Source: Escherichia coli
Lineage (GTDB): Bacteria > Pseudomonadota > Gammaproteobacteria > Enterobacterales > Enterobacteriaceae
DNA length: 64,000 bases
Reading direction: 5' to 3' (one strand)
NCBI RefSeq assembly: GCF_030384885.1
Contig: NZ_CP128613.1
Shown here piece by piece: positions 17,850 through 58,765 of the stretch. Numbering within the stretch: the first letter of the stretch is position 1; each line of letters opens with the position of its first letter. Below the pieces are notes generated by a model, which did no database searches, was not told where the DNA came from, and was given only the letters and a program-made list of their open reading frames with translations. Both the position numbers and the translations under genes were made by a program.

Positions 17850-17941
17850 CTTTGTTTTATCTTCGCTCCTGGCGTTCGGATATTTGCCCGCCGCGTGATT
17901 CGCGTTACACTTGCGGCCTTTAGTATCCTGCCGGAGTTGTC

Positions 17942-19742: not shown

Positions 19743-20201
19743 TTATTGAGTTGAAACGAGAAGCTTATAAATTTTTTCCAGATCGTCGATATTTCGAACG
19801 CGAATTAACAGCCGGCGCTGTTCTAATTGCATCACCAACACGCCATCTTCCGACAAGTTCATCGCTTTGATTCGGCTATATTCAATCCAGACATTGGCGA
19901 AGAAAAAACCTTTTTGTTTAAAGATGATCTTCGGAACGCGGATCCAGAATATATAAAACCCCATTAGAGCCAGTGCACTTAATAACCATGTCGTTATTTG
20001 CGCGCCATGATTCGTGACGTTGTTATAGATAAGAATGACAATCAGTCCTACGAAGATAACGCTGTCGATGCGGCCACGTCGGAGCAAAGGAATTGCCAGC
20101 AGGGTGGGGCCGTTGCGGCGGGGCATGATGAACTGATCGTAGATCGCGAAGGTCAGGAGTGCGGCGATAAAAAGAATCAGTACCAGGTCCGTGATTGTCA
20201 T
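19743..20201 (-). CDS. yobD: UPF0266 inner-membrane protein YobD
   Basis: 152-aa [34 protein letters not shown]... with three predicted TM helices. Confidence 0.88.
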
Positions 20202-24976: not shown

Positions 24977-26575
24977 TTAACGTAACGGCATAACGGGCGT
25001 GATATGTCCATTATGCCGGGCGGGCGGCGGTTGGCTGCCCGCCAGCCATTTGGGAAAATCACGTAGCGGCATCGGCTGTGCGTACAAATACCCTTGCAAA
25101 ATATGCACGCCATGACGGCGCAAATACTTCGCCTGTTCTTGTGTTTCCACACCCTCCGCCACCAGTTCAATATTCAGTCTTTGCCCCAGTGCGATGATGA
25201 TATCGGTCACCGTCGAGTTAACCGCGTCAGAACCTATAGCTGCGGTAAATGACTTATCAATTTTCAGCACGTCAGGACGTAATGTTTCAAGCCAGGAAAA
25301 TGAACTGTTGCCGGTGCCGAAGTCATCAATCGCCAGTTTGACGTTTTTACGATGCAGCTCGCGGGCAATCCGATAATCAACATCCAGTAAGGCATCGCGT
25401 TCGGTGATTTCGAGGATCAGTTGCTGAATCGGGTGAGCGCTAAACCAGTACTGATTGAGATCTTTTATCAGCACACCACGGCGAAAATGGCTGGGTGCGA
25501 CGTTAATGCCAACATGAAACTGACTACTCATTGGGAAAACATGCCGCTGACGGATGGTTTCTGCCATCACATAGCGGGTCAGTGGCACAATTAAATGATG
25601 TTCTTCCGCGATAGGAATAAACACATCCGGTGAAATCCAGCCCTGACGTGGATTGTTCCAGCGCAGCAAAATCTCTACACCAATACATTGCTGGCTGCGC
25701 GCATTAAGCAAAGGCTGGCAGAACAATTCGAACTCATGTTGCGCCAGGCCCAGATTGATTTCACGGGAAAAACTCATCCGGTAAGCGGTCGCCAGCCAGG
25801 CGATATAGCCCACAAGTAAACTTAGCAGCACCGCCAGCGGTAATTGTGTTGGAAGATAGTGCCATGCCAGCGCCGTAGCCCCCGGACCATTAACGTTAAT
25901 GGTAAAAGGAAAGCGTTGCGAAGAAACATGATAGTTTTCATTGTCTTCAGGTTGCGGAAGGGAATCTACCAGCCCATTACCATAGAGCAAATGCCGATCG
26001 TCCACCGTCAGGCTGGCGCTACTGATTTGCGGCAGTTGTGGCTCAAGCAGCATTGCCGCCAGTAAGTCGATGTTGATCATCTCCATGACCCCAGCATTGC
26101 TACTGCCCGCTGCAGGCGTCCATTGAATCAAAACCGGACTGCCTTTAATCAGGGCATGGTCGGTCGTCAGTCGTAAAAGTGGTTGCGGTGCAGGAAGTTC
26201 AGCCAGAATGTCCACGACGGGCACATTGCGATAACCAAAAATGCTGGAGCAATAAAGTGTGCCGTCTTGCACCAGGCCAATGGATCGCACAGTTTGGAGT
26301 TTTGCCGCCTGTTTACGTAATGGCAAATGGGCGACAGAGCAGGGCAGACCAATTAGCGGAAGTAAGACTTCGCTACCTGCCTGTAGGGGAAGCAGTACTT
26401 TATCTAATTCCTCTACAGCGTGATTGGCGAATTGTACTACCCGTTGTTGATTTAAGTTACGCTGTGAAATAAATCGCACGCTCAGGGTCGAAGCGAGCGT
26501 AACGAGTGCGCAAATCGTACAAACAATCATTCGATTACGGCGATAGGTTTTAATGATCCGTTGTGCTTTTTGCAT
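24977..26575 (-). CDS. pdeD: CSS-domain c-di-GMP phosphodiesterase PdeD (YoaD)
   Basis: 532-aa product MQKAQRIIKTYRRNRMIVCTICALVTL... with periplasmic CSS motif (YCSSIFGY) and C-terminal EAL domain; convergent with yoaE (3-nt gap). Confidence 0.88.
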   Translation of the reverse strand: MQKAQRIIKTYRRNRMIVCTICALVTLASTLSVRFISQRNLNQQRVVQFANHAVEELDKVLLPLQAGSEVLLPLIGLPCSVAHLPLRKQAAKLQTVRSIGLVQDGTLYCSSIFGYRNVPVVDILAELPAPQPLLRLTTDHALIKGSPVLIQWTPAAGSSNAGVMEMINIDLLAAMLLEPQLPQISSASLTVDDRHLLYGNGLVDSLPQPEDNENYHVSSQRFPFTINVNGPGATALAWHYLPTQLPLAVLLSLLVGYIAWLATAYRMSFSREINLGLAQHEFELFCQPLLNARSQQCIGVEILLRWNNPRQGWISPDVFIPIAEEHHLIVPLTRYVMAETIRQRHVFPMSSQFHVGINVAPSHFRRGVLIKDLNQYWFSAHPIQQLILEITERDALLDVDYRIARELHRKNVKLAIDDFGTGNSSFSWLETLRPDVLKIDKSFTAAIGSDAVNSTVTDIIIALGQRLNIELVAEGVETQEQAKYLRRHGVHILQGYLYAQPMPLRDFPKWLAGSQPPPARHNGHITPVMPLR

Positions 26576-30456: not shown

Positions 30457-30909
30457 ATGATCCGTATCGATTTCGTCACGGATGACGCCCTGTATCTTGA
30501 TACGGATAGCCTCATCGGCTGGGATTTTTCCGGCATGAACTTACATCGTGCCATTTTTGACGGTATGTGCCTGGACGGCGCGCGGTTTAATCATGCGCAT
30601 CTGCGTAATATCAGTTTTATCAACGCGTCCCTGATTGGGGCCGACCTCTCGTCCAGCGCACTGATGTGTGCCTGGTTAAACAGCGCCGATCTGACCAATT
30701 GTAATTTTGCTCAGTCACGACCCATTGATGCTGATTTTAGGCATGCACGACTTTGTGGGGCAGATTTTACCGACACCGATTTAAGAGGTGCTAATTTTTC
30801 ATCGACACATCTTCAGAATGTTTGTTTTAACGGGGCGCATTATGACAAACGAACTGTCTGGCCCGCAGAGTTTTATCCAAGGATTAACGGGGCTGTGTTG
30901 GTTGATTGA
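30457..30909 (+). CDS. Pentapeptide-repeat protein (Qnr/MfpA/McbG-like beta-helix), identity not recognised at this locus
   Basis: 150-aa ORF; residues ~22-131 are ~22 tandem 5-residue units (WDFSG MNLHR AIFDG MCLDG ARFNH AHLRN ISFIN ASLIG ADLSS SALMC AWLNS ADLTN CNFAQ ...) with F/L at the central position; ATG lies 6 nt after the yoaH stop and in the same frame; no strong SD. Confidence 0.65.
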   Translation: MIRIDFVTDDALYLDTDSLIGWDFSGMNLHRAIFDGMCLDGARFNHAHLRNISFINASLIGADLSSSALMCAWLNSADLTNCNFAQSRPIDADFRHARLCGADFTDTDLRGANFSSTHLQNVCFNGAHYDKRTVWPAEFYPRINGAVLVD

Positions 30910-35702: not shown

Positions 35703-37388
35703 TTGAAGAAGGTTTGGCTTAACCGTTATCCCGCGGACGTTCCGACGGAGATCAACCCTGACCGTTATCAATCTCTGGTAGATATGTTTGAGCAGTCGGT
35801 CGCGCGCTACGCCGATCAACCCGCGTTTGTGAATATGGGGGAGGTGATGACCTTCCGCAAACTGGAAGAACGCAGTCGCGCGTTTGCCGCTTATTTGCAA
35901 CAAGGGTTGGGACTGAAGAAAGGCGATCGCGTTGCGTTGATGATGCCTAATTTATTGCAATATCCGGTGGCGCTGTTTGGCATTTTGCGTGCCGGGATGA
36001 TTGTCGTAAACGTTAACCCGTTGTATACCCCGCGTGAACTTGAGCATCAGCTTAACGATAGCGGCGCATCGGCGATTGTTATCGTGTCTAACTTTGCCCA
36101 CACTCTGGAAAAAGTGGTTGATAAAACCGCCGTTCAGCACGTTATTCTGACCCGTATGGGCGATCAGCTATCCACGGCAAAAGGCACGGTAGTCAATTTC
36201 GTTGTTAAATACATCAAGCGTCTGGTGCCGAAATACCATCTGCCAGATGCCATTTCATTTCGTAGCGCCCTGCACAACGGCTACCGGATGCAGTACGTCA
36301 AACCCGAACTGGTGCCGGAAGATTTAGCTTTCCTGCAATATACCGGCGGTACCACTGGTGTGGCGAAAGGCGCGATGCTGACTCACCGCAATATGCTGGC
36401 GAATCTGGAACAAGTTAACGCGACTTACGGGCCGCTGTTGCATCCGGGCAAAGAGCTGGTGGTGACGGCACTGCCGCTGTATCACATTTTTGCGCTGACC
36501 ATTAACTGCCTGCTGTTTATTGAACTGGGCGGGCAGAACCTGCTTATCACTAACCCGCGCGATATTCCGGGGTTGGTAAAAGAGTTAGCGAAATATCCGT
36601 TTACCGCGATAACCGGCGTTAACACCTTGTTCAATGCGTTGCTGAACAATAAAGAGTTCCAGCAGCTGGATTTCTCCAGTCTGCACCTTTCCGCAGGCGG
36701 TGGGATGCCTGTTCAGCAAGTGGTGGCAGAACGTTGGGTGAAACTGACAGGACAGTATCTGCTGGAAGGTTATGGCCTGACCGAGTGTGCGCCGCTGGTC
36801 AGCGTTAACCCGTATGATATTGATTATCATAGTGGTAGCATCGGTTTGCCGGTGCCGTCGACGGAAGCCAAACTGGTGGATGATGATGATAATGAAGTAC
36901 CACCGGGTCAACCGGGTGAGCTTTGTGTCAAAGGACCGCAGGTGATGCTGGGTTACTGGCAGCGTCCGGATGCTACCGATGAAATCATCAAAAATGGCTG
37001 GTTACACACCGGCGATATCGCGGTGATGGATGAAGAAGGATTCCTGCGCATTGTCGATCGTAAAAAAGACATGATTCTGGTTTCCGGTTTTAACGTCTAT
37101 CCCAACGAGATTGAAGATGTCGTCATGCAGCATCCTGGCGTACAGGAAGTCGCGGCTGTTGGCGTACCTTCCGGCTCCAGTGGTGAAGCGGTGAAAATCT
37201 TCGTTGTGAAAAAAGATCCATCGCTTACCGAAGAGTCACTGGTGACTTTTTGCCGCCGTCAGCTCACGGGCTACAAAGTACCGAAGCTGGTAGAGTTTCG
37301 TGATGAGTTACCGAAATCTAACGTCGGAAAAATTTTGCGACGAGAATTACGTGACGAAGCGCGCGGCAAAGTGGACAATAAAGCCTGA
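35703..37388 (+). CDS. fadD: Long-chain-fatty-acid--CoA ligase FadD
   Basis: 561-aa product (M)[31 protein letters not shown]... with AMP-binding motif ([12 protein letters not shown]); initiates at TTG 35703, not at the upstream in-frame ATG. Confidence 0.92.
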
Positions 37389-37405
37389 GCGTTAAGTCAG
37401 TCGTC

Positions 37406-37433
37406 AGACGCCGGTTAATCCGGCGTTTTTTTT
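37406..37433 (+). terminator. Intrinsic terminator after fadD, immediately upstream of rnd
   Basis: GACGCCGG-TTAAT-CCGGCGT hairpin followed by T8. Confidence 0.8.
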
Positions 37434-45724: not shown

Positions 45725-46084
45725 ATGCTGCAAATCCCACAGAATTATATTCATACGCGCTCAACGCCTTTCTGGAATAAACAAACTGCGCCTGCCGGAA
45801 TATTCGAACGTCATCTTGATAAAGGAACGCGCCCAGGGGTATACCCACGCCTTTCCGTTATGCATGGGGCGGTCAAATATCTCGGCTACGCTGATGAACA
45901 CAGTGCAGAGCCTGATCAGGTGATCCTTATCGAAGCGGGGCAGTTTGCGGTGTTTCCGCCAGAAAAGTGGCACAACATTGAAACCATGACTGACGATACT
46001 TATTTCAACATTGACTTCTTCGTTGCTCCTGAAGTCCTGATGGAAGGCGCGCAACAACGGAAAGTCATTCATAACGGGAAATGA
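45725..46084 (+). CDS. yeaR: DUF1971 protein YeaR (nitrate/NO-induced)
   Basis: 119-aa product MLQIPQNYIHTRSTPFWNKQTAPAGIFERHLDKGTRPG... Confidence 0.88.
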   Translation: MLQIPQNYIHTRSTPFWNKQTAPAGIFERHLDKGTRPGVYPRLSVMHGAVKYLGYADEHSAEPDQVILIEAGQFAVFPPEKWHNIETMTDDTYFNIDFFVAPEVLMEGAQQRKVIHNGK

Positions 46085-46087
46085 ATC

Positions 46088-46270
46088 ATGGGCAAAGCAA
46101 CGTATACCGTGACCGTCACCAATAACAGCAATGGTGTTTCTGTCGATTATGAAACAGAGACGCCGATGACTTTGCTGGTGCCAGAAGTGGCGGCTGAAGT
46201 GATAAAAGATCTGGTGAATACCGTGCGTTCTTATGACACGGAAAACGAACATGATGTTTGTGGTTGGTAA
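46088..46270 (+). CDS. yoaG: Small protein YoaG (DUF1869)
   Basis: 60-aa product MGKATYTVTVTNNSNGVSVDYETETPMTLLVPEVAAEVIKDL...; 3 nt after yeaR. Confidence 0.88.
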   Translation: MGKATYTVTVTNNSNGVSVDYETETPMTLLVPEVAAEVIKDLVNTVRSYDTENEHDVCGW

Positions 46271-46417
46271 TTATCACTGATCGTAGATGGCGCAATTTCT
46301 GCGCCATCGCAAAAAAATCCTCCGTGATGCTTGTCACAAATCTTGCCCTCCTGATGTTGTGCTATGCTTTTTATCAGCGACTAACCCGCTAATGCAAAAC
46401 AGATAAGTGAGGAAACA

Positions 46418-46666
46418 ATGGGCATTCTGTCATGGATTATTTTTGGGCTTATTGCCGGTATTCTGGCGAAGTGGATCATGCCAGGTAAAGATGGTGGTGG
46501 ATTCTTTATGACTATCCTGCTGGGGATAGTCGGTGCCGTAGTCGGCGGATGGATCAGCACGCTGTTTGGCTTTGGTAAAGTCGATGGCTTCAATTTTGGC
46601 AGCTTCGTGGTTGCCGTTATTGGTGCGATTGTCGTGCTGTTTATCTACAGAAAGATCAAAAGTTAA
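46418..46666 (+). CDS. yeaQ: GlsB/YeaQ/YmgE-family small membrane protein YeaQ
   Basis: 82-aa Gly-rich two-helix membrane product MGILSWIIFGLIAGILAKWIMPGKDGGGFFMTILLGIVGAVVGGWIS... Confidence 0.9.
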   Translation: MGILSWIIFGLIAGILAKWIMPGKDGGGFFMTILLGIVGAVVGGWISTLFGFGKVDGFNFGSFVVAVIGAIVVLFIYRKIKS

Positions 46667-46680
46667 CGCGTAAATTGCAC

Positions 46681-46716
46681 AAAGGCTGCACACAGGCAGC
46701 CTTTGCTATTTTTTAG
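46681..46716. terminator. Terminator hairpin between convergent yeaQ and yoaJ
   Basis: AAAGGCTGC-ACACAG-GCAGCCTTT followed by TTTTTT. Confidence 0.75.
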
Positions 46717-46724
46717 ATGTGACG

Positions 46725-46799
46725 TTACCACCATCCCAACTCAGTGCCGAGAACGACAATAATCGCTACGCCCATCATAATAATCGTTGTTTTTTTCAT
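46725..46799 (-). CDS. yoaJ: Small membrane protein YoaJ (24 aa)
   Basis: Minus-strand ORF MKKTTIIMMGVAIIVVLGTELGWW (below track threshold); matches recalled size of the Hemm-type small protein; assignment by length and position. Confidence 0.65.
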   Translation of the reverse strand: MKKTTIIMMGVAIIVVLGTELGWW

Positions 46800-46801
46800 C
46801 T

Positions 46802-46900
46802 TTACGCTCCCGGGGCAGCATAGCCGCCAATAAAAAACCATGCTAAAAATACGACCGCTGTAATAAAGATTACAACCGGAAAAATAATACCGATTCGCAT
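46802..46900 (-). CDS. yoaK: Small membrane protein YoaK (32 aa)
   Basis: Minus-strand ORF MRIGIIFPVVIFITAVVFLAWFFIGGYAAPGA ending 2 nt before yoaJ start; single TM helix. Confidence 0.65.
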   Translation of the reverse strand: MRIGIIFPVVIFITAVVFLAWFFIGGYAAPGA

Positions 46901-46932
46901 GTTATCACCAATCAAAAGGATGTGAATACGCC

Positions 46933-47958
46933 TCAGGAATGTAGCGCTGAATGCGCGACAAAAGGTGTTTTCTGTTTGTGTTTTTTCTCCTGATACATCG
47001 CGATATCGGCAGCATGCAGGGCGCTGTCTGCATCGGTCGTTTCAGGATCGACTTCTACTATGCCAAGACTGGCACCAGGATAATACAAATCAACATCACC
47101 TAAGTGATATTCTCCGCGTATTTGCTGTTGAATACGTTCTCGCAGCGATGGAATATCCGCATTCTCATTGTTCAGTGAAACAACCAAAAACTCATCACCG
47201 CCGAGACGACCAATAACTTCGCCATTTTGCTGGAGCGTATTAAGGCGCTCGCCAACCTGAATAAGAAACAGATCGCCACTATTATGACCAAAACGATCAT
47301 TGATTAATTTGAAGTTATCCAGATCGATAAATGCGATCATTATCTTATGGTTAAGATGCCTCGCAAGAGAAAACAGCGTCGTCAGGTTTTCAAAAATCGC
47401 CCGCCGATTCGGTAGCCCGGTTAACGAGTCGGTATACGATTGCGCAATCAGTGCGGCATTGGCTTCGCGCAGCTGTTCAACCAGCGCCTCTTTTTGAATA
47501 TATTGTGCAATCAGTCCGGCGAATAGCTGTAAAACCTGTTCCGCGCGTTCACTCCACTGGCGCTTCTCACTGCTGGCGGCGCAAAGTGTGCCATAGAATG
47601 ATCCATCCGGTAAGTGAATTGGCGTGCTCAGAAATGTGGTGATGCCAAGATTTCGTGCCGCAATACAGTCGCCCCAACGGTCGGGGACTTCATCGCTGAA
47701 AAAGCAGTTTTCATCAATGGCACGCTTGCATAATGAGTAATCCCACGAGACGGTAAAATTCTCCGGGATGTGCATTTTCTGGCTATTACGGGCAAACATA
47801 ATATGCTGCAGGCGCGCTTCGACATCCACTTTGGTCAGGTAGGTTGACTCCATATCAGTGACCATTTCCAGCATCTCCAGAAGCTGTCGGACCAGACTTT
47901 CCAGTGACTGTTCTTTGGCAAGGGATTGCGAGACGCGGGCGATAATCTGATCTGACAC
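46933..47958 (-). CDS. dgcP: Diguanylate cyclase DgcP (YeaP), GAF-GGDEF
   Basis: 341-aa product (M)SDQIIARVSQSLAKEQSLESLVRQL... with intact RLGGDEF active site; GTG start with GGAG RBS; ORF extends upstream to 48087 but known protein starts here. Confidence 0.88.
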   Translation of the reverse strand: MSDQIIARVSQSLAKEQSLESLVRQLLEMLEMVTDMESTYLTKVDVEARLQHIMFARNSQKMHIPENFTVSWDYSLCKRAIDENCFFSDEVPDRWGDCIAARNLGITTFLSTPIHLPDGSFYGTLCAASSEKRQWSERAEQVLQLFAGLIAQYIQKEALVEQLREANAALIAQSYTDSLTGLPNRRAIFENLTTLFSLARHLNHKIMIAFIDLDNFKLINDRFGHNSGDLFLIQVGERLNTLQQNGEVIGRLGGDEFLVVSLNNENADIPSLRERIQQQIRGEYHLGDVDLYYPGASLGIVEVDPETTDADSALHAADIAMYQEKKHKQKTPFVAHSALHS

Positions 47959-48140
47959 AAAACAACTCCAGGATACGGCGGGTAAATGCTGATTATTTAA
48001 TCTTTGCAGGCATGATAAAACATCATCAACAAAGATGAAACAAGGCGTAATATGTTTTGAGTGAATGTAATAAAAATAGTGCTGCAAAACAAAACGATAC
48101 CGCGATACTCTAAGCCTGGATAAATATGTGAGATCAATAA

Positions 48141-48395
48141 ATGAAAATTATCAGTTTTGTTCTGCCTTGCTTGCTGGTCCTGGCTGGTTGTTCAACCCCT
48201 TCTCAGCCAGAAGCACCTAAACCGCCGCAGATTGGTATGGCAAATCCGGCGTCGGTCTATTGCCAGCAGAAGGGCGGGGCGCTCATTCCTGTGCAGACAG
48301 CGCAAGGGGTCTGCAACAATTGCAAATTACCGGGCGGTGAAACGATTGATGAATGGGCATTGTGGCGACGGGACCATCCGGCTGGTGAAAAATAA
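48141..48395 (+). CDS. yoaF: Lipoprotein YoaF (DUF333)
   Basis: 84-aa product MKIISFVLPCLLVLAGCSTPSQPEAPKPPQIGMANPASVYC... with lipobox LAGC. Confidence 0.88.
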   Translation: MKIISFVLPCLLVLAGCSTPSQPEAPKPPQIGMANPASVYCQQKGGALIPVQTAQGVCNNCKLPGGETIDEWALWRRDHPAGEK

Positions 48396-48416
48396 CCGCC
48401 GGATGCTGCACTAAAA

Positions 48417-48764
48417 TCACAAGCTACGTAGCCAGTCGGCCAGCACCAGTGCATGGTTCTGCGTGGTGTTTTTTGCTGAGTAGAGCAGGGTTAGCGGCTG
48501 TTTTTTGGCGATGTCCGCCAGCCGCTTTCCTTCTTGCTCGTGTTGCGTCAGTTCTGCAAGATATTGCTCGCGAAAGGTTGCAAAATCGACGACTTCGCCG
48601 TGAAAGGCTTTGCGCAGTTCCGTTGACGGCGTGATTTCTTTATCCCACTCATCAAGGGCTAAATCGGTTTTCTTGATACCGCGCGGCCAGAGGCGGTCGA
48701 CCAGTACGCGATAACCATCGCTCTGTTCAGCCGGATCATAAACGCGTTTGCACTGAATATTCAT
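48417..48764 (-). CDS. yeaO: DUF488 protein YeaO
   Basis: 115-aa product MNIQCKRVYDPAEQSDGYRVLVDRLWPRGIKK...; start at internal Met of ORF 48417..48785. Confidence 0.88.
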   Translation of the reverse strand: MNIQCKRVYDPAEQSDGYRVLVDRLWPRGIKKTDLALDEWDKEITPSTELRKAFHGEVVDFATFREQYLAELTQHEQEGKRLADIAKKQPLTLLYSAKNTTQNHALVLADWLRSL

Positions 48765-48818
48765 CGTATTTGTTCTCCCTTTCACGCATGATTTGTCACG
48801 TCACTATAGCACCGGATA

Positions 48819-50000
48819 TTAGCGAATTTCTTTGTCTCTCCCGGCGCAAAGTCCGAAAATCGCCATCAGTAGTGAAAGTATTGCAACACCCATCAGTGGT
48901 ACGGACCAGTCACCGTTAGCATCGTGTATTTTACCCATCAGCGGCGGCCCACAGGCTGCCAGCAAATACCCGACGGATTGTGCCATCCCCGAGAGTGCCG
49001 CCGCCTGATGCGCAGAACTTGCCCGCAGACCAATGAACGTCAACCCCAGTATCATTGTTGCGCCGGAACCAAAACCGAAAAGCAGAGTCCAGGTGATCGC
49101 GTGTGCTGGCATAAAGCAGAGCCCAACCGCGCCCACTGCGCACATCAAGGCAACGAATGCTGCAATACCACGCTGATCTTTCACATGATGTAAGAAAAGT
49201 GGGATCAGCAAACCGGGAGCTGCTGTGGCTAGTTGCAGCAAACCATGCAGTGAACCCGCCTGTGCTTCGCTATAGCCGTGACTGATGAGGATCGCCGGAA
49301 GCCAGCCAATAATCACGTAATAGACCAGTGAGTTGATCCCAAGAAACAATGTTACCTGCCAGGCAAGCGGCGAACGCCAGATACCCCGAGTATGTAAGGC
49401 GCGTGAGGTACTCAAATTTGCATGTTGTTGACTTCGCCACTGTGGCAGCCATAAAAAAAGAGCCAGCAGAGGAAAACACATCAGCATGAGCAACGCGCCT
49501 TGCCAGCCAAAACCGTTCAAAGCCAGCGGCACGACCATAGCCGATCCCAGTGCCGCAGCAGCTCCCATTGTCAGGGAATATGCGCCGGTAAGTCTGGCGA
49601 CGGAATGAGGGAAATCGCGTTTAATTAATCCTGGCAGTAAGACATTGCCTAATGCAATCCCACCGCCAATGACCGCTGTACCGCCAAATAATAAGTAAGG
49701 CGAAGGGAGAGAGCGAATTGCAATACCAGCACAGATCAAAAGTAACGCGGCAAACAGGCTACGTTCCATACCAAAACGTCGCGCCACCGGGGCAGCCAGA
49801 GGTGAGATTAGCGCAAAGGCTAATAATGGCAGGGTGGTCAATAAGCCGGTTTGCGCCGTCGTCAGCGAGTAAGCGGAACGAATCGTATCCAGTAACGGTG
49901 CTGCGCCGGTAAAGGTGACGCGTAATGTTGTGGCAATCATCAGAATGCCAGCGATAAGGACAATCCTGTTTTTGCCGCTTAATGAAGTTGAACAGGTCAT
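48819..50000 (-). CDS. nimT: MFS transporter NimT (YeaN), nitroimidazole efflux
   Basis: 393-aa 12-TM MFS product MTCSTSLSGKNRIVLIAGILMIATTLRVTFTGAAPLLD... Confidence 0.9.
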   Translation of the reverse strand: MTCSTSLSGKNRIVLIAGILMIATTLRVTFTGAAPLLDTIRSAYSLTTAQTGLLTTLPLLAFALISPLAAPVARRFGMERSLFAALLLICAGIAIRSLPSPYLLFGGTAVIGGGIALGNVLLPGLIKRDFPHSVARLTGAYSLTMGAAAALGSAMVVPLALNGFGWQGALLMLMCFPLLALFLWLPQWRSQQHANLSTSRALHTRGIWRSPLAWQVTLFLGINSLVYYVIIGWLPAILISHGYSEAQAGSLHGLLQLATAAPGLLIPLFLHHVKDQRGIAAFVALMCAVGAVGLCFMPAHAITWTLLFGFGSGATMILGLTFIGLRASSAHQAAALSGMAQSVGYLLAACGPPLMGKIHDANGDWSVPLMGVAILSLLMAIFGLCAGRDKEIR

Positions 50001-50096
50001 ATGCTTCTCATTGTTACAAACGAGGCTGTACCTTACCGTTTTTATTGTTATGTTGAATCAAGCTAAAATGACAAATTATCGCTAAATTCGGACAAA

Positions 50097-50918
50097 ATGA
50101 TGCACAGGTTGAATCTCAATGGCTATGAACCCGACCGACACCATGAAGCCGCGGTCGCATTTTGTATTCACGCCGGAACGGATGAGTTAACCAGTCCTGT
50201 ACATAAGCACCGCAAAGGGCAGTTGATACTGGCACTACATGGTGCAATTACCTGTACGGTGGAAAATGCTTTGTGGATGGTGCCGCCACAATATGCGGTT
50301 TGGATACCGGGCGGGGTGAAACATAGCAATCAAGTGACAGCTAACGCTGAACTCTGTTTTCTGTTTATCGAACCCAGCGCAGTGACAATGCCGACAACAT
50401 GTTGCACATTGAAAATATCGCCCTTATGCCGGGAATTAATTTTAACCCTGGCAAACAGGACGACGACTCAGCGTGCTGAGCCGATGACCCGCAGATTAAT
50501 TCAGGTCCTGTTTGATGAACTCCCTCAGCAGCCACAACAACAGCTGCACCTGCCCGTTTCTTCTCATCCTAAAATCCGCACGATGGTGGAGATGATGGCG
50601 AAAGAGCCCGTCGAGTGGGGCTCATTGGGGCAATGGGCTGGCTTTTTTGCGATGAGTGAACGCAATCTTGCCCGGCTGATAGTGAAAGAGACGGGGTTGA
50701 GTTTTCGCCAGTGGCGTCAGCAGTTACAGCTGATTATGGCGCTTCAGGGATTAGTGAAAGGCGATACTGTACAGAAAGTTGCTCATACGCTGGGGTATGA
50801 TTCAACAACGGCCTTTATTACTATGTTTAAGAAAGGCCTGGGGCAAACGCCAGGCCGATATATTGCGGGATTAACTACTGTTTCCCCACAATCAGCGAAA
50901 CCAGACCCGCGGCAATAA
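50097..50918 (+). CDS. nimR: AraC-family regulator NimR (YeaM)
   Basis: 273-aa product with cupin-like N-domain and C-terminal AraC HTH; divergent from nimT. Confidence 0.9.
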
Positions 50919-51321
50919 GCGGGCCAACCGGTACGCCGCGAAACAGCGCCACGCCCAAAACAGTGCCCACCAGCAGCCCGGCGACCAGTTGCGGCTGGCT
51001 GCCCATTAACGTCACGCCGCGCCCACCTAGCCAGGAGACAATAACGCCTACTGCAATTGCCACCAGCGATTTCCAGTTCAGAAACGAGTGAATCAGGGTT
51101 GAGGGCGGTAGCGTCCCGCTGGCGATGGGGGCCATAACGCCAATCGTCAGAATGATTATCCCGATACTTAGCCCCTGTTTTTCAATCCACGGGAAAAAGG
51201 TGCTTAACGGTGTGACGCGGACAATGATTAACACCAGAATTGAAACGGCGACAGTGGTGTTATGACTGATAAAGCCCAGCGCAGCTAACCCGAGCAGGAT
51301 CAGCAAAGTGACATCAAACAT
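50875..51321 (-). CDS. yeaL: UPF0756 membrane protein YeaL
   Basis: 148-aa four-TM product [36 protein letters not shown]...; 3' end overlaps nimR 3' end (convergent). Confidence 0.88.
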
Positions 51322-51490
51322 CGTGGTTTCCTTGCCAAAAAATAATAAGCCTGCTTACTTTACGCTTGCTGCAGGAAGGAAGTAGAAAATCTTTACGTTT
51401 TTTGCATAAAAAATCAGGCGAACTGTCATCAAACTGCCATTTGTGCACGCTAACAATAACGTGAAAACAGCTATCTCCCCGGGGCATACT

Positions 51491-51595
51491 ATGAACGATC
51501 AAATGTTTGTCGAGACACTGATTATCACGTCATCGTTTTTTGCCATTGCTGTTGTGCTGGTTTTGTCCGTTCTGCTTATTGAACGGACAGGCTAG
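51491..51595 (+). CDS. yoaI: Small membrane protein YoaI (34 aa)
   Basis: ATG ORF (below track threshold) [34 protein letters not shown]; single TM helix; frame verified by codon-by-codon count. Confidence 0.75.
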
Positions 51596-52099
51596 TTACG
51601 CAGTGCGGCGGAAATTGACCAGTTCTGGTTGCGCAATGCGCAAATAATCCGCGGTTTTCAAAATAACGGATTTATCCAGCATGCCTGCATTGAAGGCGAT
51701 TTCATCAAATCGTTCGAAGAGTAGGGGGTCGGCAACCAGTTTGAGTTTTGGATGGAAGCTGAAAGGGGGGATCGCGCCGAAGACACAGCCTGTGAGTTCA
51801 TCGACTTCCGCCGGGCTGGCCAACGAAGCGCGTAATCCGCCTATATGACTGGCGAGTTGGCTCAGATCGGCCTGTTGATCGGCAGCGAGGATCGCCAGAA
51901 CATGTTGATTTACGCCATTGCCTTTGACTTTACATACCAGTGCCTTAGCCCCCTGGCCTAAAGCGGTGCCACGAATTTCTGACACCGCTTCGCATTTACC
52001 TACCGCCTCATGGGTAACGACGCGGAAGTCAGCTCCTTCTTGTGATAATAAAGCGATTAACCGCTGATGCGTCAAGCTTCCTTTAGCCATTTCAGTCAT
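51596..52099 (-). CDS. yeaK: YbaK/ProX-family aminoacyl-tRNA deacylase YeaK
   Basis: 167-aa product MTEMAKGSLTHQRLIALLSQEGADFRVVTHEAVGKCEAVSEIRG... Confidence 0.88.
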   Translation of the reverse strand: MTEMAKGSLTHQRLIALLSQEGADFRVVTHEAVGKCEAVSEIRGTALGQGAKALVCKVKGNGVNQHVLAILAADQQADLSQLASHIGGLRASLASPAEVDELTGCVFGAIPPFSFHPKLKLVADPLLFERFDEIAFNAGMLDKSVILKTADYLRIAQPELVNFRRTA

Positions 52100-52141
52100 T
52101 TCATGCTCCTGAGATTACAAGCAAACAACCACAGAAGATTA

Positions 52142-53632
52142 TCATGAACGGCTGTTTTTGTTCTGCTTATTGACATATAAACGCTCATCGGAAGCTTTAT
52201 ACGCATCATGTAACGTATCGTTTTCTTTCATCGCGTAAATACCGGAAGAGAAGCCGATCTCTTTTTGCGGCGCGATATGTTGCAGACGTTTTTCGATACG
52301 TTCAGGCAGTTGTGCTGCAATTTGCGGCGTCGAATCGACAAGAATGATGCAGAATTCATCGCCACCGAGTCGGATGGCATAATCACTTTTACGAATCGAC
52401 TGTTTAATCGCCTGAGCTAATAACGTAATCGCTAAATCCCCCTCCTGATGACCGAGGGTGTCATTTATTTGCTTTAACTTGTCCATGTCAATTGCAATAA
52501 ACATCACCGAAGAACCGGATTGCACCAGTTTTTGCAACCGCTGCTCCAGTTCAGGGGTTAATATTTTGCGATTATACAGTCCGGTCATCGCATCACTAAT
52601 ATTTTCTCGCGACACATTTTGGTATAAACGGAAGTGCATCCGGACCATATTCAGCAAAATTAACGCCGTCAAAATCCAGAACAGAACGCTTTTCCACGAA
52701 GACGTGATAAAGTAAAGAATATCAATGGATAACGAGACACGAATACCGCCCGGTAAGTCATGGACGTAACTGACATACTGGAACAGATTATCTTCGCTCT
52801 GGTTGATGATAATGTCGCGCCCTGAATCTGTATCAGTTAGCGTGACATTGAGAAAACGCCAGAGGAGAGGGCGGTCATGAGTATAAAAGATATTCCGCAG
52901 ATTGTTTTTGTTAATATCCAGCAGCACAATTCCTTTTAGCTGCCCTGCAACATACACTGGCGTCAGCAAACTCATCACGTTCTGTTTAGTACGCTGATCC
53001 TGGTAAATGCTCGATAATACGGTACGCCCGGTAAATACCTTTTCAATATCTTTGCGATCGATGCCAATACTTCCTGACTGCAGGAAGGACCAGTTATTCA
53101 TCGCAAAGTACTCAACATTAACCGGCTCATAAAAATAGACATAGCGGTCATTGAGATCGAGATAATAGTGAAATTTCTCTTCGGCCATCCCAAGACCTGA
53201 ACCGTAATCATCCTGGTGGCGGTTGCCTTCCACTGCCTGATCAAAAGCGGGTAATAGTGCTGCAGCTTCCACAATGGTGTCGCAGTCAGTGGATGCGGTT
53301 TGTAGTGTGCCGCGTAAGCCCGGGTATTTATGGGCAGTCAGGTTTAAGCCATGGGTATTATTGGCAGACTCAAAAGCCTCGCAGATGGCGCGCCGCTGTT
53401 CTGGCGACACTTCCGACTGCTCAGCAGCGAGAGCGCGCATCACATGCGCGGCAATACTCTGATTTTGATACTTATCATAAAGAAAGGAGGAATCTGCTCT
53501 CTGCACGATATAGCGCAGATAGGCACTCATTGCTCTGTCGCTGGCGACAAGTTCAAAAATAAGGAAGGAAGATGTCAGCACAATGACACTTGCGGCGATA
53601 AAATGCCGGAGCATTCTATGGTGCAATTTCAT
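52142..53632 (-). CDS. dgcJ: Diguanylate cyclase DgcJ (YeaJ)
   Basis: 496-aa product MKLHHRMLRHFIAASVIVLTSSFLIFELV... with periplasmic sensor region, TM and intact RLGGDEF; start at internal Met of ORF 52142..53812. Confidence 0.88.
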   Translation of the reverse strand: MKLHHRMLRHFIAASVIVLTSSFLIFELVASDRAMSAYLRYIVQRADSSFLYDKYQNQSIAAHVMRALAAEQSEVSPEQRRAICEAFESANNTHGLNLTAHKYPGLRGTLQTASTDCDTIVEAAALLPAFDQAVEGNRHQDDYGSGLGMAEEKFHYYLDLNDRYVYFYEPVNVEYFAMNNWSFLQSGSIGIDRKDIEKVFTGRTVLSSIYQDQRTKQNVMSLLTPVYVAGQLKGIVLLDINKNNLRNIFYTHDRPLLWRFLNVTLTDTDSGRDIIINQSEDNLFQYVSYVHDLPGGIRVSLSIDILYFITSSWKSVLFWILTALILLNMVRMHFRLYQNVSRENISDAMTGLYNRKILTPELEQRLQKLVQSGSSVMFIAIDMDKLKQINDTLGHQEGDLAITLLAQAIKQSIRKSDYAIRLGGDEFCIILVDSTPQIAAQLPERIEKRLQHIAPQKEIGFSSGIYAMKENDTLHDAYKASDERLYVNKQNKNSRS

Positions 53633-53812
53633 GATAAATGGCACTCCTTCGGTTAGTGAAACGAGAAAACCAGATAAAGTTCGATTGCGGCCTGGCACAG
53701 GGGCGCTAATTATACTCATCTCTGCGCCGCTGGGGAGGGGAAATTTAGGGGTAATAGTAATAAATTGTATGCAAAAGCCACGCAAAAAGCATGGCTCTGA
53801 ATATTTTTGCAC

Positions 53813-55288
53813 TTAAATATGATGAATAATCACTTTGTTGCCCCCCTCGCTTTTCGCTTCGCGTAAGGCTTTATCTGCTTCCGTCATGACAAGCGAGATA
53901 TTACGCGTGTCACCCGTTGAAAAAACCGTGCCAATACTGATGGTCATTTGTTCAGGAACATCATATCTGTTACTAAAACCGGTCAGGAGTTCGACATTTT
54001 TACGCATACGTTCCGCAATGATTTTTGCCTGGGCACTATTGAGTTCGGTAAATAGCAAGCCAAACACCTCACCCTCCAGTCGCGCTAAAATATCATCGGG
54101 GCGGATGCTTTGCTGGATAATATCGACAATTGAAACCAGCACTTTATCACCCACACGATGTCCCCATTGGGCATTGATGCGCTTGAACTGATTAATATCA
54201 ACCAGCATGACACAAAAGTCCTTAACAACAGGTCGCGACAATAATGACTCTACGCTGTTGAAAAAGTAGCGCCGATTATAAATATTGGTCAGTACATCAT
54301 GAACTGCCAGTTTGCTGGAGAGTTGCAGTTCCTGAAAAATGTTATAAATCAGAAAAGACACAACAAACAGTTTACTGGAAACTTCAATCCCGCGACTGAT
54401 ATACCAAATGGTGTAATTATACTCATCCAGAGTCAGTAGAAGTAAGTTGCAGCATAGCGATGCCAGACATAATAATGCTATTAACGGCCATAGTTCGCTG
54501 GCTAATCGTGTACGCATGATAATAAAGAACAGTAAAAATGCCCACAAACAAACCAATATTTTTGTATAGTTGATTCCCCAGGTCGCAGTATGGTTGTCCG
54601 GACAGTAATCGACGACATACAAAGAATAGTCAGCGTTATAACTGCTCAGATTGTGTGCCAGAAGGGGAAAAACTAAAAAAGGAATCAGCGCCAGCAACAG
54701 AATGCCAGTTTTTTTCTTATTGTTGTCAAGGATGTTGTCTTTCCCATAACAAAAGAGCGCCAGCGAGGTTAAACAAATGAAACTGAGTTGGCGGAAAATA
54801 TAGAAAATAGAAACATCATTCGACTTTGTCTGGATCAGTGTACTGCCGTTGATTGGTTTATGGATAATTACAATGGTTTCAACTAAATAGATAAGGCCAC
54901 TTAAAAATGCAAGGCTTAAAATGAGTGTTGGTAAAATTTGTTTGTTAGTGAAATACTTCATTAACATGAAAAGAAAAATGACGGCGTTAAGGAAAAACAA
55001 AGCCACAACAACCATCAGGTAATTCATCTGTGGGATGAGTTTTACATTCGTGTTTTCGTTATATAAGGTAGTAATGCACAATAAAATTAACGTCAGCAAT
55101 AAGCTGAAAATAAAAAAGCCTTGAGCTTTTAATTTTTGTGTACCCATAGAAGCCATAAAAAGGAGAGCAATGTGAGTGCTGGATTTTATTGATGGCAGAG
55201 ATATATGGTTTTGACCAGGATCAATTTTCGTTGACGATAAAAAATAATTAAAGAATAACCCCAGGGAAATACGTGTTGACCGAATCAT
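53813..55288 (-). CDS. cdgI: Degenerate GGDEF-domain membrane protein CdgI (YeaI)
   Basis: 491-aa product with multi-TM N-terminal region and GGDEF-like domain in which the active-site motif reads EGEVF; markedly AT-rich coding sequence. Confidence 0.88.
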   Translation of the reverse strand: MIRSTRISLGLFFNYFLSSTKIDPGQNHISLPSIKSSTHIALLFMASMGTQKLKAQGFFIFSLLLTLILLCITTLYNENTNVKLIPQMNYLMVVVALFFLNAVIFLFMLMKYFTNKQILPTLILSLAFLSGLIYLVETIVIIHKPINGSTLIQTKSNDVSIFYIFRQLSFICLTSLALFCYGKDNILDNNKKKTGILLLALIPFLVFPLLAHNLSSYNADYSLYVVDYCPDNHTATWGINYTKILVCLWAFLLFFIIMRTRLASELWPLIALLCLASLCCNLLLLTLDEYNYTIWYISRGIEVSSKLFVVSFLIYNIFQELQLSSKLAVHDVLTNIYNRRYFFNSVESLLSRPVVKDFCVMLVDINQFKRINAQWGHRVGDKVLVSIVDIIQQSIRPDDILARLEGEVFGLLFTELNSAQAKIIAERMRKNVELLTGFSNRYDVPEQMTISIGTVFSTGDTRNISLVMTEADKALREAKSEGGNKVIIHHI

Positions 55289-55434
55289 TTTTCCGAATGA
55301 TTGTTTTCTGAAACTAAATTGTGTAAAGGTTATGCTGTCATATTTAAAGCGATTGTAAGCTAATGTATGTAATAAATGAGATAATTTACAGTGAGCTAAA
55401 AATCAGCCAGGCGATAATGACCCGGCTGACAGTT

Positions 55435-56730
<1,296 letters not shown>

Positions 56731-56830
56731 CTACATTTGCCAACTGTTTGCTACGCCTGTGTTGCCGCTTCTCTGGCCCACGGTTCGCTGTCGTTGTAGG
56801 CCCGGTAGCATGCGTACCGGGCCATGGTTG

Positions 56831-58765
56831 TTAAGACGATTTACGTACGCGCAAATACCATTCGCACAGTAAACGCACCTGTTTACGGGTGTAGCCTTTT
56901 TCCATCATACGGTCGACAAAATCGTCGTGTTTCTTCTGCTCGTCGGTTGACGTTTTGGCGTTAAACGAAATAACCGGCAACAGCTCCTCGGTATTAGAGA
57001 ACATTTTCTTCTCAATAACCGTGCGCAGTTTTTCATAGCTGGTCCAGTTCGGATTGCGTCCGCTGTTATTCGCTCTGGCGCGCAGTACGAAGTTGACAAT
57101 CTCGTTGCGGAAATCTTTTGGATTACTGATCCCCGCCGGTTTCTCAATTTTCTCCAGCTCGGCGTTGAGAGATTCGCGGTCAAATAGCTGCCCGGTATCC
57201 GGGTCGCGATACTCCTGATCCTGAATCCAGAAATCTGCATACGTGACATAACGGTCAAAAATGTTTTGTCCATACTCAGAATAGGATTCAAGATACGCAG
57301 TCTGAATCTCTTTACCGATAAACTCGGCATATTTCGGGATCAGATAACCTTTCAGGAACTCCAGATAGCGTTCTGCCTGCTCTTGCGGGAACTGCTCGCG
57401 CTCGATCTGCTGTTCCAGGACGTAGAACAGATGAACAGGGTTTGCTGCCACTTCCACGTGGTCGAAGTTGAACACGCGAGAGAGGATCTTAAACGCAAAA
57501 CGCGTGGACAGACCGTTCATCCCTTCATCAACGCCTGCGTAGTCACGATATTCCTGATACGACTTGGCTTTCGGATCGGTGTCTTTCAGACTTTCGCCAT
57601 CATAAACCCGCATCTTCGAATAAATGCTGGAGTTTTCCGGCTCTTTCAGACGCGAAAGAATGGAAAAACGAGACAGCGTTTCCAGCGTGCCAGGTGCGCA
57701 GGGGGCGTGAGTCAGTTCACTATGATTAAGCAATTTCTCGTAGATTTTGATCTCTTCGGAAATACGCAAGCAATATGGCACCTTCACGATATAAACACGA
57801 TCGAGGAAGGCTTCGTTGTTCTTGTTATTACGGAAAGTGACCCATTCGGATTCGTTCGAATGGGCGAGAATAATCCCGTTAAACGGCAAGGCGGAGATAC
57901 CTTCCGTACCGTTGTAGTTACCTTCCTGAGTGGCGGTTAACAGGGGATGCAGCACTTTAATCGGTGCTTTAAACATCTCGACAAACTCCATGATCCCCTG
58001 GTTGGCGCGGCACAGTGCACCGGAATAGCCGTAGGCGTCCGGGTCATTCTGCGCGTAGTGTTCGAGTTTACGAATATCGACTTTCCCAACCAGCGCGGAG
58101 ATGTCCTGGTTGTTCTCATCACCGGGTTCCGTTTTGGCGATAGCAATTTGTTGCAGAATTGACGGCCAGACCTTCACTACCCGGAACTTAGTGATATCGC
58201 CACCAAATTCATGCAGGCGTTTTGCCGCCCACGGCGACATGATGGTGCCGAGATAACGGCGAGGAATGCCATACTCTTTTTCCAGAATCTGCGCATCTTC
58301 CTGCGGATTGAAAAGACAGAACGGATGATCGTTGACCGGGCTCCGCTCACCGTTAGCGCTTAATACATAGATCGGCACGAGCTGCATTAATGATTTCAGT
58401 CGCTCAGCAAGCGATGATTTACCCCCACCCACAGGCCCCAGCAGATACAGGATTTGTTTCTTCTCCTCCAGCCCCTGAGCCGCGTGTTTCAGATAAGAGA
58501 CAATCTGTTCAATCGCGTCTTCCATGCCGTAAAACTCTTCAAAGGCCGGGTAACGTGCAATGACCCGGTTAGAAAAGAGTCGAGAAAGTCTGGGTTCCTG
58601 GGCTGTATCGACCATGACAGGCTCACCGATAGCCATCAATAGCCGCTCAGCCGCGTTGGCATAAGCACTGCGATCTTGCCGACAAGTGGTAAGAAACTCC
58701 TGCAGTGTGAACTCTTCGTCCTTGGCAGCTTCATATCGCTGGCGATAGTGATCGAATATATTCAT
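56831..58765 (-). CDS. yeaG: PrkA-family serine protein kinase YeaG
   Basis: 644-aa product MNIFDHYRQRYEAAKDEEFTLQEFLTTCRQD... with Walker A (GPVGGGKSS). Confidence 0.93.
   Translation of the reverse strand: MNIFDHYRQRYEAAKDEEFTLQEFLTTCRQDRSAYANAAERLLMAIGEPVMVDTAQEPRLSRLFSNRVIARYPAFEEFYGMEDAIEQIVSYLKHAAQGLEEKKQILYLLGPVGGGKSSLAERLKSLMQLVPIYVLSANGERSPVNDHPFCLFNPQEDAQILEKEYGIPRRYLGTIMSPWAAKRLHEFGGDITKFRVVKVWPSILQQIAIAKTEPGDENNQDISALVGKVDIRKLEHYAQNDPDAYGYSGALCRANQGIMEFVEMFKAPIKVLHPLLTATQEGNYNGTEGISALPFNGIILAHSNESEWVTFRNNKNNEAFLDRVYIVKVPYCLRISEEIKIYEKLLNHSELTHAPCAPGTLETLSRFSILSRLKEPENSSIYSKMRVYDGESLKDTDPKAKSYQEYRDYAGVDEGMNGLSTRFAFKILSRVFNFDHVEVAANPVHLFYVLEQQIEREQFPQEQAERYLEFLKGYLIPKYAEFIGKEIQTAYLESYSEYGQNIFDRYVTYADFWIQDQEYRDPDTGQLFDRESLNAELEKIEKPAGISNPKDFRNEIVNFVLRARANNSGRNPNWTSYEKLRTVIEKKMFSNTEELLPVISFNAKTSTDEQKKHDDFVDRMMEKGYTRKQVRLLCEWYLRVRKSS

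Follow-up and report, generated by a model that had tools for sequence, protein, structure and literature searches.

The AT-rich gene of CdgI, an Escherichia coli GGDEF protein with a degenerate A-site and an intact I-site

Three genes that encode GGDEF domains lie within 8.4 kb of one another in a 64-kb stretch of Escherichia coli DNA (the window), and one of them, cdgI (yeaI), is both AT-rich and broken at its active-site motif. The locus raises the question of what such a gene is for, that is, whether its product still makes c-di-GMP, has become a receptor for it or is simply decaying, and whether its base composition betrays a foreign origin. Over the 12 kb from 46000 to 58000, the sequence matches NZ_CP027579.1 (E. 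coli 2013C-4282) at 100% identity, and the region is an ordinary, species-wide E. coli yeaG-yeaH-cdgI-dgcJ ... dgcP neighbourhood. The best overall explanation, with a probability of roughly 80%, is that CdgI is a receptor with a dead A-site that descends from an active cyclase, and that its gene is an old, AT-rich and nearly silent target of H-NS. In this account, we infer that K-12 data on binding, expression, H-NS and regulators apply to strain 2013C-4282 as well.

Three GGDEF genes and the motifs of CdgI

All of the c-di-GMP genes considered here are on the minus strand. RefSeq annotates cdgI at 53813-55288 (491 amino acids; MASE4 plus a degenerate GGDEF domain; 39.0% GC), dgcJ (yeaJ) at 52142-53632 (45.5% GC) and dgcP (yeaP) at 46933-47958 (48.0% GC). 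Pfam assigns a GAPES1 periplasmic sensor and a GGDEF domain to DgcJ, GAF and GGDEF domains to DgcP, and a CSS-motif with an EAL phosphodiesterase domain to PdeD (yoaD; 24977-26575; 50.1% GC, ordinary for the window). DgcJ carries an IRLGGDEF A-site and an RKSD I-site; DgcP reads GRLGGDEF and has no RxxD I-site. A preliminary description of this DNA had reported two GGDEF genes with RLGGDEF and one with EGEVF within about 8 kb, pdeD some 20 kb away, and all four genes as known. Translations, RefSeq, Pfam and the K-12 literature bear this out; the distance of pdeD is 20.4 kb to dgcP and 27 kb to cdgI. The presence of three GGDEF genes within 8.4 kb exceeds chance (about 0.004-0.04 genome-wide by a simple Poisson estimate with 19 GGDEF-domain genes per 4.64 Mb). 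Tandem duplication was rejected as their origin, the domains being just 28-31% identical to one another.

The gene is the ortholog of K-12 cdgI (YeaI, b1785). The order yeaH-cdgI-dgcJ is the same in both genomes, as are the length of 491 amino acids, the RPDD...EGEVF motifs and the MASE4-GGDEF architecture; nucleotide identity is about 98%. A small number of amino-acid replacements (98% identity to the cluster representative, P0001) brings no functional distinction.

CdgI belongs to the MASE4-GGDEF family. An integral-membrane MASE4 domain (residues 88-319; 54332-55027, minus strand; PF17158, 165.8 bits, 1.4e-48; 37.1% GC) is followed by a GGDEF domain (residues 328-485; 53834-54307, minus strand; 44.7% GC) that matches PF00990 over profile positions 1-161 of 161 (152.8 bits, 9.1e-45) and 41 GGDEF chains of solved structures at E < 1e-10. 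The motif region reads RPDDILARLEGEVF, encoded at 54062-54103. Within it, RPDD (residues 396-399; 54092-54103, minus strand) and EGEVF (residues 405-409; 54062-54076, minus strand) are spaced as RPDD-ILARL-EGEVF, with exactly five residues between RxxD and the A-site position, as in an I-site. EGEVF aligns with the GGEEF of solved diguanylate cyclases and occupies the GG(D/E)EF position with both the first Gly and the fourth Glu substituted. The metal and guanine box, D-x-D...F-K-x-x-N-D in active enzymes, reads DINQFKRINA, with DID changed to DIN and IND to INA. Structures and mutagenesis of PleD and WspR have established that each such change in the A-site, DxD or IND abolishes catalysis. 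Read from these motifs, the A-site of CdgI is dead and its RxxD I-site is intact, and the protein most likely makes no c-di-GMP any longer. A full-text literature search for 'EGEVF' returned no matches.

That CdgI still has some diguanylate cyclase activity and works by increasing c-di-GMP is very improbable. Sanchez-Torres 2011 is the source that Spurbeck et al. 2012 cite for the cyclase activity of YeaI. The latter place YeaI among proteins of 'verified diguanylate cyclase activity', describe a biofilm defect of a CFT073 yeaI mutant in LB without salt that the cyclase WspR complements, and report K-12 yeaI mutants as more motile (PMC3484386). However, WspR gave no complementation in glycerol medium (PMC3484386), and both Sarenko et al. 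2017 (PMC5635695) and K-12 RefSeq class the protein as non-catalytic; published statements on CdgI cyclase activity conflict (PMC5635695 versus PMC3484386). Residual activity would also have to survive the replaced Gly and Glu of the A-site together with the loss of the second Asp of DxD and of the Asp of IND. Furthermore, positions 1, 3 and 4 of the A-site vary freely across Escherichia-type orthologs, which show six broken forms (EGEVF, EGEEF, DGEVF, EGDVF, EGNVF and EGKRF), as expected of a site released from selection.

[quoted passage not shown] 2017, PMC5635695, Fig. S4). K-12 CdgI also makes multiple GGDEF-GGDEF contacts and is toxic when overexpressed (PMC5635695). CdgI would then be a membrane-anchored MASE4-GGDEF protein that binds c-di-GMP at its preserved allosteric I-site, and its output may run through protein-protein contacts with other GGDEF domains, whether as sensor, effector or cyclase antagonist. 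PopA of Caulobacter and PelD of Pseudomonas aeruginosa, likened to CdgI here by fold and motif, have a GGDEF fold with a non-catalytic A-site and use c-di-GMP bound at RxxD as an effector input. The partner in PopA consists of receiver domains, and in PelD of a GAF domain and transmembrane segments; outputs are known for both.

Orthologs, the slot downstream of yeaH, and selection

The closest comparison outside Escherichia comes from Citrobacter sp. Awk 4, NCU1 and related genomes, where an ortholog with 57-63% identity and 37-38% GC fills the same slot (yeaH-X-dgcJ-yeaK) and has the same length as CdgI from the conserved start; the synteny in Awk 4 and its relatives extends over yeaG-yeaH-cdgI-dgcJ-yeaK. 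Unlike CdgI, the five Citrobacter-type orthologs compared have kept both GGEEF and DIDHFKRIND, and by these motifs are presumably still cyclases. RxxD is invariant in more than 30 ortholog and paralog sequences. CdgI probably descends from an active cyclase of the kind that its syntenic Citrobacter orthologs still appear to be. The active MASE4-GGDEF cyclases of E. coli itself, DgcT (YcdT) and DgcX (PMC10459773), share with CdgI the domain architecture, 38-45% identity, RxxD and AT-richness relative to the host. They differ in keeping GGEEF, DID and IND where CdgI is catalytically dead, and dgcX is prophage-associated and strain-variable whereas cdgI is core.

Among 83 yeaH loci, cdgI is found only in Escherichia and a few Citrobacter, a patchy distribution (the 80 loci returned include neither Salmonella nor E. 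fergusonii). In Enterobacter, Lelliottia and others, yeaH adjoins yeaK, and in many Citrobacter and Kluyvera it adjoins dgcJ. Elsewhere the cargo downstream of yeaH consists of methyltransferase, hemerythrin, hexapeptide-transferase, LysR, GT9 or Usp genes. The contents of the slot differ from one member of the Enterobacteriaceae to another.

If cdgI were a relic without function, turning into a pseudogene, its dead motif, silence and AT drift would all be signs of decay. In keeping with this, the protein is undetectable in K-12 (PMC5635695), truncated alleles of 345 (P0013), 295 (P0019) and 281 (P0025) amino acids have hundreds of member sequences, and one complete genome (H17) carries an IS200 insertion in cdgI. 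Such decay is nonetheless very unlikely. Across Escherichia species, both domains have dN/dS values of 0.09-0.11, five species representatives retain an intact reading frame and the I-site does not vary; of 5426 complete E. coli genomes, 5424 contain cdgI, which has also been reported as core in 61 genomes (PMC5635171). Regulated induction by SrsR (PMC9181523) and AppY (PMC10057817) and the phenotypes of yeaI mutants (PMC3484386) also speak against a relic.

A more specific history can be offered tentatively, at somewhat less than even odds. An enzyme would have been converted stepwise into a receptor: in Citrobacter the gene in this slot would still be an active GGEEF cyclase, and in Escherichia the first Gly of the A-site would have been lost once and followed by at least six A-site variants, with the I-site and MASE4 domain held under purifying selection. 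Low GC would be a maintained state that persists across saturated synonymous divergence, not an un-ameliorated donor relic, and possibly selected to keep a toxic protein under the control of H-NS.

Base composition, H-NS and a possible horizontal origin

The preliminary description singled out cdgI as AT-rich against the rest of the window. Sliding-window GC analysis, which it had proposed as a check, confirms a clear outlier. At 39.0% GC, cdgI is the lowest of 70 annotated genes (z = -3.7 against the 54 genes 300 nt or longer, 50.7% +/- 3.1), and cdgI with its upstream spacer is also where the 64 kb have their lowest 500-, 1000- and 1476-nt windows. The lowest 500-nt stretch (31.8%) spans 54904-55403, covering the 5' end of cdgI and the yeaH-cdgI spacer. 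Of two hand counts given as 30-33%, the one at 55021-55080 holds (33.3%); the other, at 54901-54960, comes to 26.7%, below the range.

In what way the composition arose can be examined by partitioning the deficit of 11.7 GC points, of which about 7.7 belong to amino-acid composition and about 4.2 to synonymous codon choice. It is unlikely, though far from negligible, that no horizontal transfer was involved. The low GC would then result from a membrane protein rich in Ile, Leu, Phe, Asn, Lys and Tyr, combined with AT-biased mutation and relaxed selection on codons in a gene with hardly any expression, and H-NS would bind because GC is low, not because the gene is foreign. From its amino-acid composition alone, cdgI would be expected to have 43.3% GC, compared with a window mean of 51.0%; this covers about two-thirds of the deficit, and the synonymous residual (-0.042) is matched by that of pphA (-0.045). 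The dinucleotide signature (composition-normalised delta*) is ordinary, at the 53rd percentile. A local history is also in keeping with the core status of the gene and with a dS equal to that of its flanking genes (0.54-0.71, compared with 0.42-0.79 in dgcJ and yeaH). Singleton synonymous changes (50 W->S versus 40 S->W, p = 0.34) are indistinguishable from stationarity, and all orthologs have a GC3 of 0.41-0.45 despite the saturation of synonymous sites between genera.

Several observations weigh on the other side. Other membrane proteins in the window have a high expected GC (nimT 0.562, yebQ 0.540), and the soluble GGDEF domain of cdgI is low as well, at 44.7%. With window transporters GC-rich and both GC3 and the soluble domain low, membrane-protein bias was rejected as the whole cause. 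Moreover, cdgI is missing from most Enterobacteriaceae, with unrelated cargo in the slot elsewhere, and all MASE4-GGDEF genes checked have a GC content well under that of their hosts; dgcX (29.2% GC) lies beside prophage tail genes, and another such gene has 47% against 55% in its flanks. Three published predictors (GIST, Nakamura and Lawrence) call the promoter island inside yeaI foreign (PMC3661553).

Since cdgI orthologs in both Citrobacter and Escherichia remain at 37-39% GC (37.3-39.4%) despite saturated synonymous sites, the low GC is a stable, long-standing property; it is not the relic of a fresh donor, nor only a fading donor signature. The AT-richness would be partly an amino-acid trait common to the MASE4-GGDEF family and partly synonymous. 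This composition would already have been stable before Escherichia radiated and would make the 5' end of the gene a target of H-NS.

The earlier suggestion of an old horizontal acquisition is supported, with qualifications. The age of the gene, the variable slot and the foreign predictions (PMC3661553) favor it; the ordinary dinucleotide signature, a GC deficit that lies mostly at the amino-acid level and the stability of the low GC across genera qualify it. No atypical oligonucleotide signature or mobile-element hallmark marks cdgI: the annotation places no mobile-element genes, tRNA or integrase near it, and a repeat search of 46000-58000 gave short chance pairs only, with no flanking repeats or insertion boundaries. 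The case for a horizontal origin thus rests on GC, patchy distribution and the published predictors, without direct insertion marks.

The accompanying suggestion of H-NS silencing is supported by K-12 data. The promoter island inside yeaI is bound by H-NS in all three compiled ChIP-chip sources (Panyukov & Ozoline 2013, PMC3661553 Table 1), and CdgI is undetectable under standard conditions, with CsrA acting as a repressor (PMC5635695). The island maps to approximately 54858-55161 and overlaps the lowest-GC stretch; for this mapping, the SrsR peak in the yeaH-cdgI spacer served to check how far coordinates differ from one K-12 genome version to another. The high-affinity H-NS motif TCGATAAATT, at up to 2 mismatches, is not enriched in cdgI (2 hits versus 2.6 expected), weak negative evidence, and the published ChIP data count for more. 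Between 53500 and 55600, promoter-like sites are no more frequent than in dinucleotide-preserving shuffles (5 versus 6.3 +/- 3.5), and the 'promoter island' is not visible beyond the effect of AT-richness itself. SrsR activates cdgI (PMC9181523); an AppY ChIP peak lies at the gene, for which the table of direct AppY targets gives a value of 11.0, taken here as fold induction (PMC10057817). In the favored explanation, cdgI would be kept almost silent by H-NS and CsrA and switched on by regulators such as SrsR and AppY.

The 47 N-terminal codons of the annotated cdgI (55148-55288, minus strand) are not conserved in an analysis of the upstream frame. No open frame continues upstream of the MGTQKLK start (M48) in Citrobacter, in E. 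albertii or in the representatives of two further Escherichia species, and orthologs of 444-448 amino acids begin at M45/M48. The annotated ATG has GGA 4 nt upstream, and M45/M48 are without a Shine-Dalgarno sequence. By these comparisons, 55148-55288 may be a 5' leader rather than coding sequence. Further upstream on the minus strand are a candidate sigma-70-like -35/-10 pair (TTTACA-16-AACAAT; 55300-55327), identified by consensus match only, and a terminator-like hairpin (55402-55430) immediately after the yeaH stop that separates yeaH from cdgI. An Rfam search returned no RNA family inside 46933-55288.

Implications for CdgI and its family

The picture of cdgI as an AT-rich gene with a broken motif is correct but already published for the K-12 gene in terms of its motif, c-di-GMP binding, silence, H-NS occupancy and foreign predictions. 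Direct observations are the identities and motifs of the genes, the GC outlier, the synteny, the decay of the A-site beside an invariant I-site, purifying selection and core status. The importance of the locus as a discovery is small, and what is added is modest and comparative. The Citrobacter GGEEF orthologs in the same slot provide a natural 'before' state for the passage from cyclase to I-site receptor, and the stability of low GC across genera indicates that an AT-rich core gene need not imply a recent or un-ameliorated transfer.

Setting of the three GGDEF genes

By translation and Pfam, the window carries the three GGDEF proteins of the preliminary description, with RLGGDEF in DgcP and DgcJ and EGEVF in CdgI. 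According to RefSeq, all three genes and the phosphodiesterase gene pdeD lie on the minus strand: pdeD at 24977-26575 (CSS-motif and EAL), dgcP at 46933-47958 (GAF and GGDEF; GRLGGDEF), dgcJ at 52142-53632 (GAPES1 and GGDEF; IRLGGDEF) and cdgI at 53813-55288 (MASE4 and GGDEF), where RPDD-ILARL-EGEVF is encoded at 54062-54103. After pdeD and a gap, the annotated order is leuE, yeaR, yoaG, yeaQ, yoaJ, yoaK, dgcP, yoaF, yeaO, nimT, nimR, yeaL, yoaI, yeaK, dgcJ, cdgI, yeaH and yeaG. The proposed spacing of about 20 kb to pdeD agrees with the 20.4 kb measured from dgcP; cdgI is 27 kb away. A simple Poisson estimate with 19 GGDEF genes puts the chance of three falling within 8.4 kb at about 0.004-0.04 genome-wide, and a grouping by chance is unlikely. 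Tandem duplication is rejected as its origin, since the three GGDEF domains share just 28-31% pairwise identity.

The 46000-58000 region matches the E. coli 2013C-4282 chromosome (NZ_CP027579.1) at 100% identity, and 5424 of 5426 complete E. coli genomes contain it at 95-99% identity. Over 45 kb, four SNPs and an additional G set the window apart from NZ_CP027579.1. The G lies near 23693 within yoaE (23417-24973, plus strand), an intact 518-codon ORF here that is labelled 'frameshifted' in NZ_CP027579.1, probably an assembly or version difference. Elsewhere, a gene for a 150-amino-acid pentapeptide-repeat protein (30457-30909, plus strand) starts 6 bp past yoaH and is a rare accessory gene, present in just 3/5426 complete genomes; the adjacent yoaC/yoaB stretch shares only some 93% identity with most E. 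coli. The protein matches Pfam Pentapeptide but falls below every NCBIfam equivalog cut-off, scoring 64.6 bits where the Alr5209-type model requires 125 and 39.6 where Qnr requires 240.

Catalytic motif, I-site and N-terminus of CdgI

Aligned to solved diguanylate cyclases, CdgI places EGEVF over GGEEF, DIN over DID and INA over IND. In GGDEF biochemistry, each of these changes takes away a residue essential for catalysis. The allosteric I-site is intact in the alignments, with RPDD at its canonical position five residues upstream of EGEVF. The earlier view of CdgI as likely inactive and a possible c-di-GMP receptor is supported.

Relatives suggest how this state arose. MASE4-GGDEF paralogs recovered by homolog search and alignment (38-46% identity to CdgI) have GGEEF in every case, and Citrobacter-type proteins (57-63%) combine GGEEF with DIDHFKRIND. 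Escherichia-type proteins display six distinct broken motifs (EGEVF, EGEEF, DGEVF, EGDVF, EGNVF and EGKRF). Since RxxD is unchanged across all three groups aligned, the A-site drifts while the I-site is held, a pattern that would be expected of a protein kept for binding, not catalysis. The YcdT/DgcX/YeaI MASE4-GGDEF family has been described by Cimdins-Ahne et al. 2023 (PMC10459773). One dissenting report, Spurbeck et al. 2012, places YeaI among 'verified' cyclases, and the WspR complementation seen there was medium-dependent (PMC3484386).

Three truncated cdgI alleles, P0013, P0019 and P0025, end after residues 345, 295 and 281 and represent 639, 249 and 934 member sequences, respectively. 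One complete genome (H17, NZ_CM143878.1) has IS200C inserted in cdgI, and together these indicate that the GGDEF domain has been lost in some E. coli lineages. At the other end, the first 44-47 codons of the 491-amino-acid annotation (55148-55288, minus strand) lack conservation. In E. albertii, two further Escherichia species representatives and Citrobacter, the upstream reading frame is closed, and orthologs begin at the residue matching M45/M48. A GGA sits just upstream of the annotated ATG, while M45/M48 lack a Shine-Dalgarno sequence. The N-terminal extension is doubtful.

Base composition and its stability

At 39.0% GC, cdgI ranks last among the 70 annotated window genes (z = -3.7; genes of 300 nt or more average 50.7%, SD 3.1), and the window-wide calculation proposed earlier therefore shows it to be an outlier. 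Among the other c-di-GMP genes, dgcJ (45.5%) and dgcP (48.0%) lie slightly below average and pdeD (50.1%) is unremarkable. In sliding windows, the 500-nt minimum of the entire 64 kb is 54904-55403 (31.8%), and the 1-kb and gene-sized minima likewise lie over cdgI and the spacer upstream of it. Two blocks hand-counted at roughly 30-33% compute to 26.7% and 33.3%.

Much of the skew resides in the protein. GC1/GC2/GC3 are 42.1/31.5/43.3%, and the membrane portion (residues 1-325) has 36.6% GC compared with 44.7% for the GGDEF domain. If codons are assigned at the synonymous frequencies of the window itself, the CdgI protein sequence would by itself give 43.3% GC, compared with a mean of 51.0% (z = -3.0); the rest of the deficit, -4.2 points, is synonymous (z = -2.2) and close to that of pphA. 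Since the membrane proteins NimT and YebQ have high expected GC, membrane-protein status by itself does not explain the value. With delta* at the 53rd percentile, the composition-normalised dinucleotide signature is unexceptional, and no repeats, tRNA or mobility genes were found beside cdgI by repeat search and RefSeq annotation of the region.

Orthologs in Escherichia and Citrobacter have 37.3-39.4% GC (GC3 0.41-0.45), next to yeaG and yeaH at 48-52% (GC3 0.49-0.63). Among MASE4-GGDEF relatives, dgcX has 29.2% and another gene 47% in flanks of 55%. Singleton synonymous changes within Escherichia number 50 AT->GC and 40 GC->AT (p = 0.34), compatible with stationarity or very slow amelioration. 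Taken together, the AT-richness is long-standing and family-wide, not a fresh donor signature.

Several other window features can be noted. The gene pphA (2032-2688) has a synonymous GC deficit of -0.045, as big as that of cdgI, with GC3 of 0.443, and may likewise have atypical codon usage. Strongly AT-rich stretches occur at 16819-17318 (33% GC, unannotated, between yebO and yobF) and 19550-19749 (24.5%, between mntP and yobD); the latter matches another H-NS-bound promoter island, yobD/mntP (PMC3661553, Table 1). At gathering score, Rfam finds SraC/RyeA and SdsR/RyeB on opposite strands (1757-1901), a cspA-type thermoregulator over the yobF-cspC leader (17391-17851) and sroD (37347-37432), and no family in the mntP leader. 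The cold-shock gene at 17567-17776 is labelled cspE by RefSeq and occupies the K-12 cspC locus.

Ancestry of the locus and published work

A YeaH scan of species-representative genomes returned 80 Enterobacteriaceae loci, whose gene states were then assigned by tblastn. The Citrobacter GGEEF proteins occupy exactly the cdgI slot (yeaG-yeaH-X-dgcJ-yeaK...dgcP). Among the 80 loci, yeaH-cdgI-dgcJ occurs only in Escherichia and a few Citrobacter; yeaH is followed by dgcJ in many Citrobacter, Kluyvera and the Klebsiella oxytoca group, and directly adjoins yeaK in Enterobacter, Lelliottia, Kosakonia and others. Elsewhere (yeaH loci L012-L061) the yeaH-dgcJ or yeaH-yeaK junction is, by genus, empty or filled with unrelated cargo: a SAM methyltransferase, hemerythrin, hexapeptide transferase, LysR with a membrane protein, GT9 glycosyltransferase or Usp protein. 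The junction downstream of yeaH is a variable slot. Within Escherichia, dS is 0.54-0.71 for cdgI, 0.42-0.79 for dgcJ and 0.49-0.73 for yeaH, and cdgI dN/dS is 0.09-0.11 in both domains; cdgI is co-inherited with its neighbours under purifying selection. Between Escherichia and Citrobacter, synonymous sites are saturated and dN of cdgI (0.27-0.31) is on par with dgcJ (0.26). cdgI DNA is present in 5424/5426 complete E. coli genomes, and Povolotsky & Hengge, as cited in PMC5635171, report it in all 61 genomes studied.

The K-12 ortholog is about 98% identical to the window gene. [quoted passage not shown] A 304-bp promoter island within yeaI was H-NS-bound in every ChIP-chip study compiled by Panyukov & Ozoline 2013 and associated with predictions of foreign origin from GIST, Nakamura and Lawrence (PMC3661553); mapped approximately through K-12 coordinates, it corresponds to window 54858-55161, the AT trough. 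SrsR, which binds in the yeaH-cdgI spacer, is an activator of cdgI (PMC9181523). The AppY target data report a ChIP peak in cdgI, and their direct-target table a value of 11.0, taken here as probable fold induction (PMC10057817).

The preliminary observation is confirmed and the interpretation as a whole is supported, its essentials having already been published for the K-12 ortholog, and everything essential on cdgI is already known. The comparative additions are small extensions: syntenic orthologs predicted to be active, A-site drift with an invariant I-site, a variable slot, stable low GC and a doubtful N-terminal extension.
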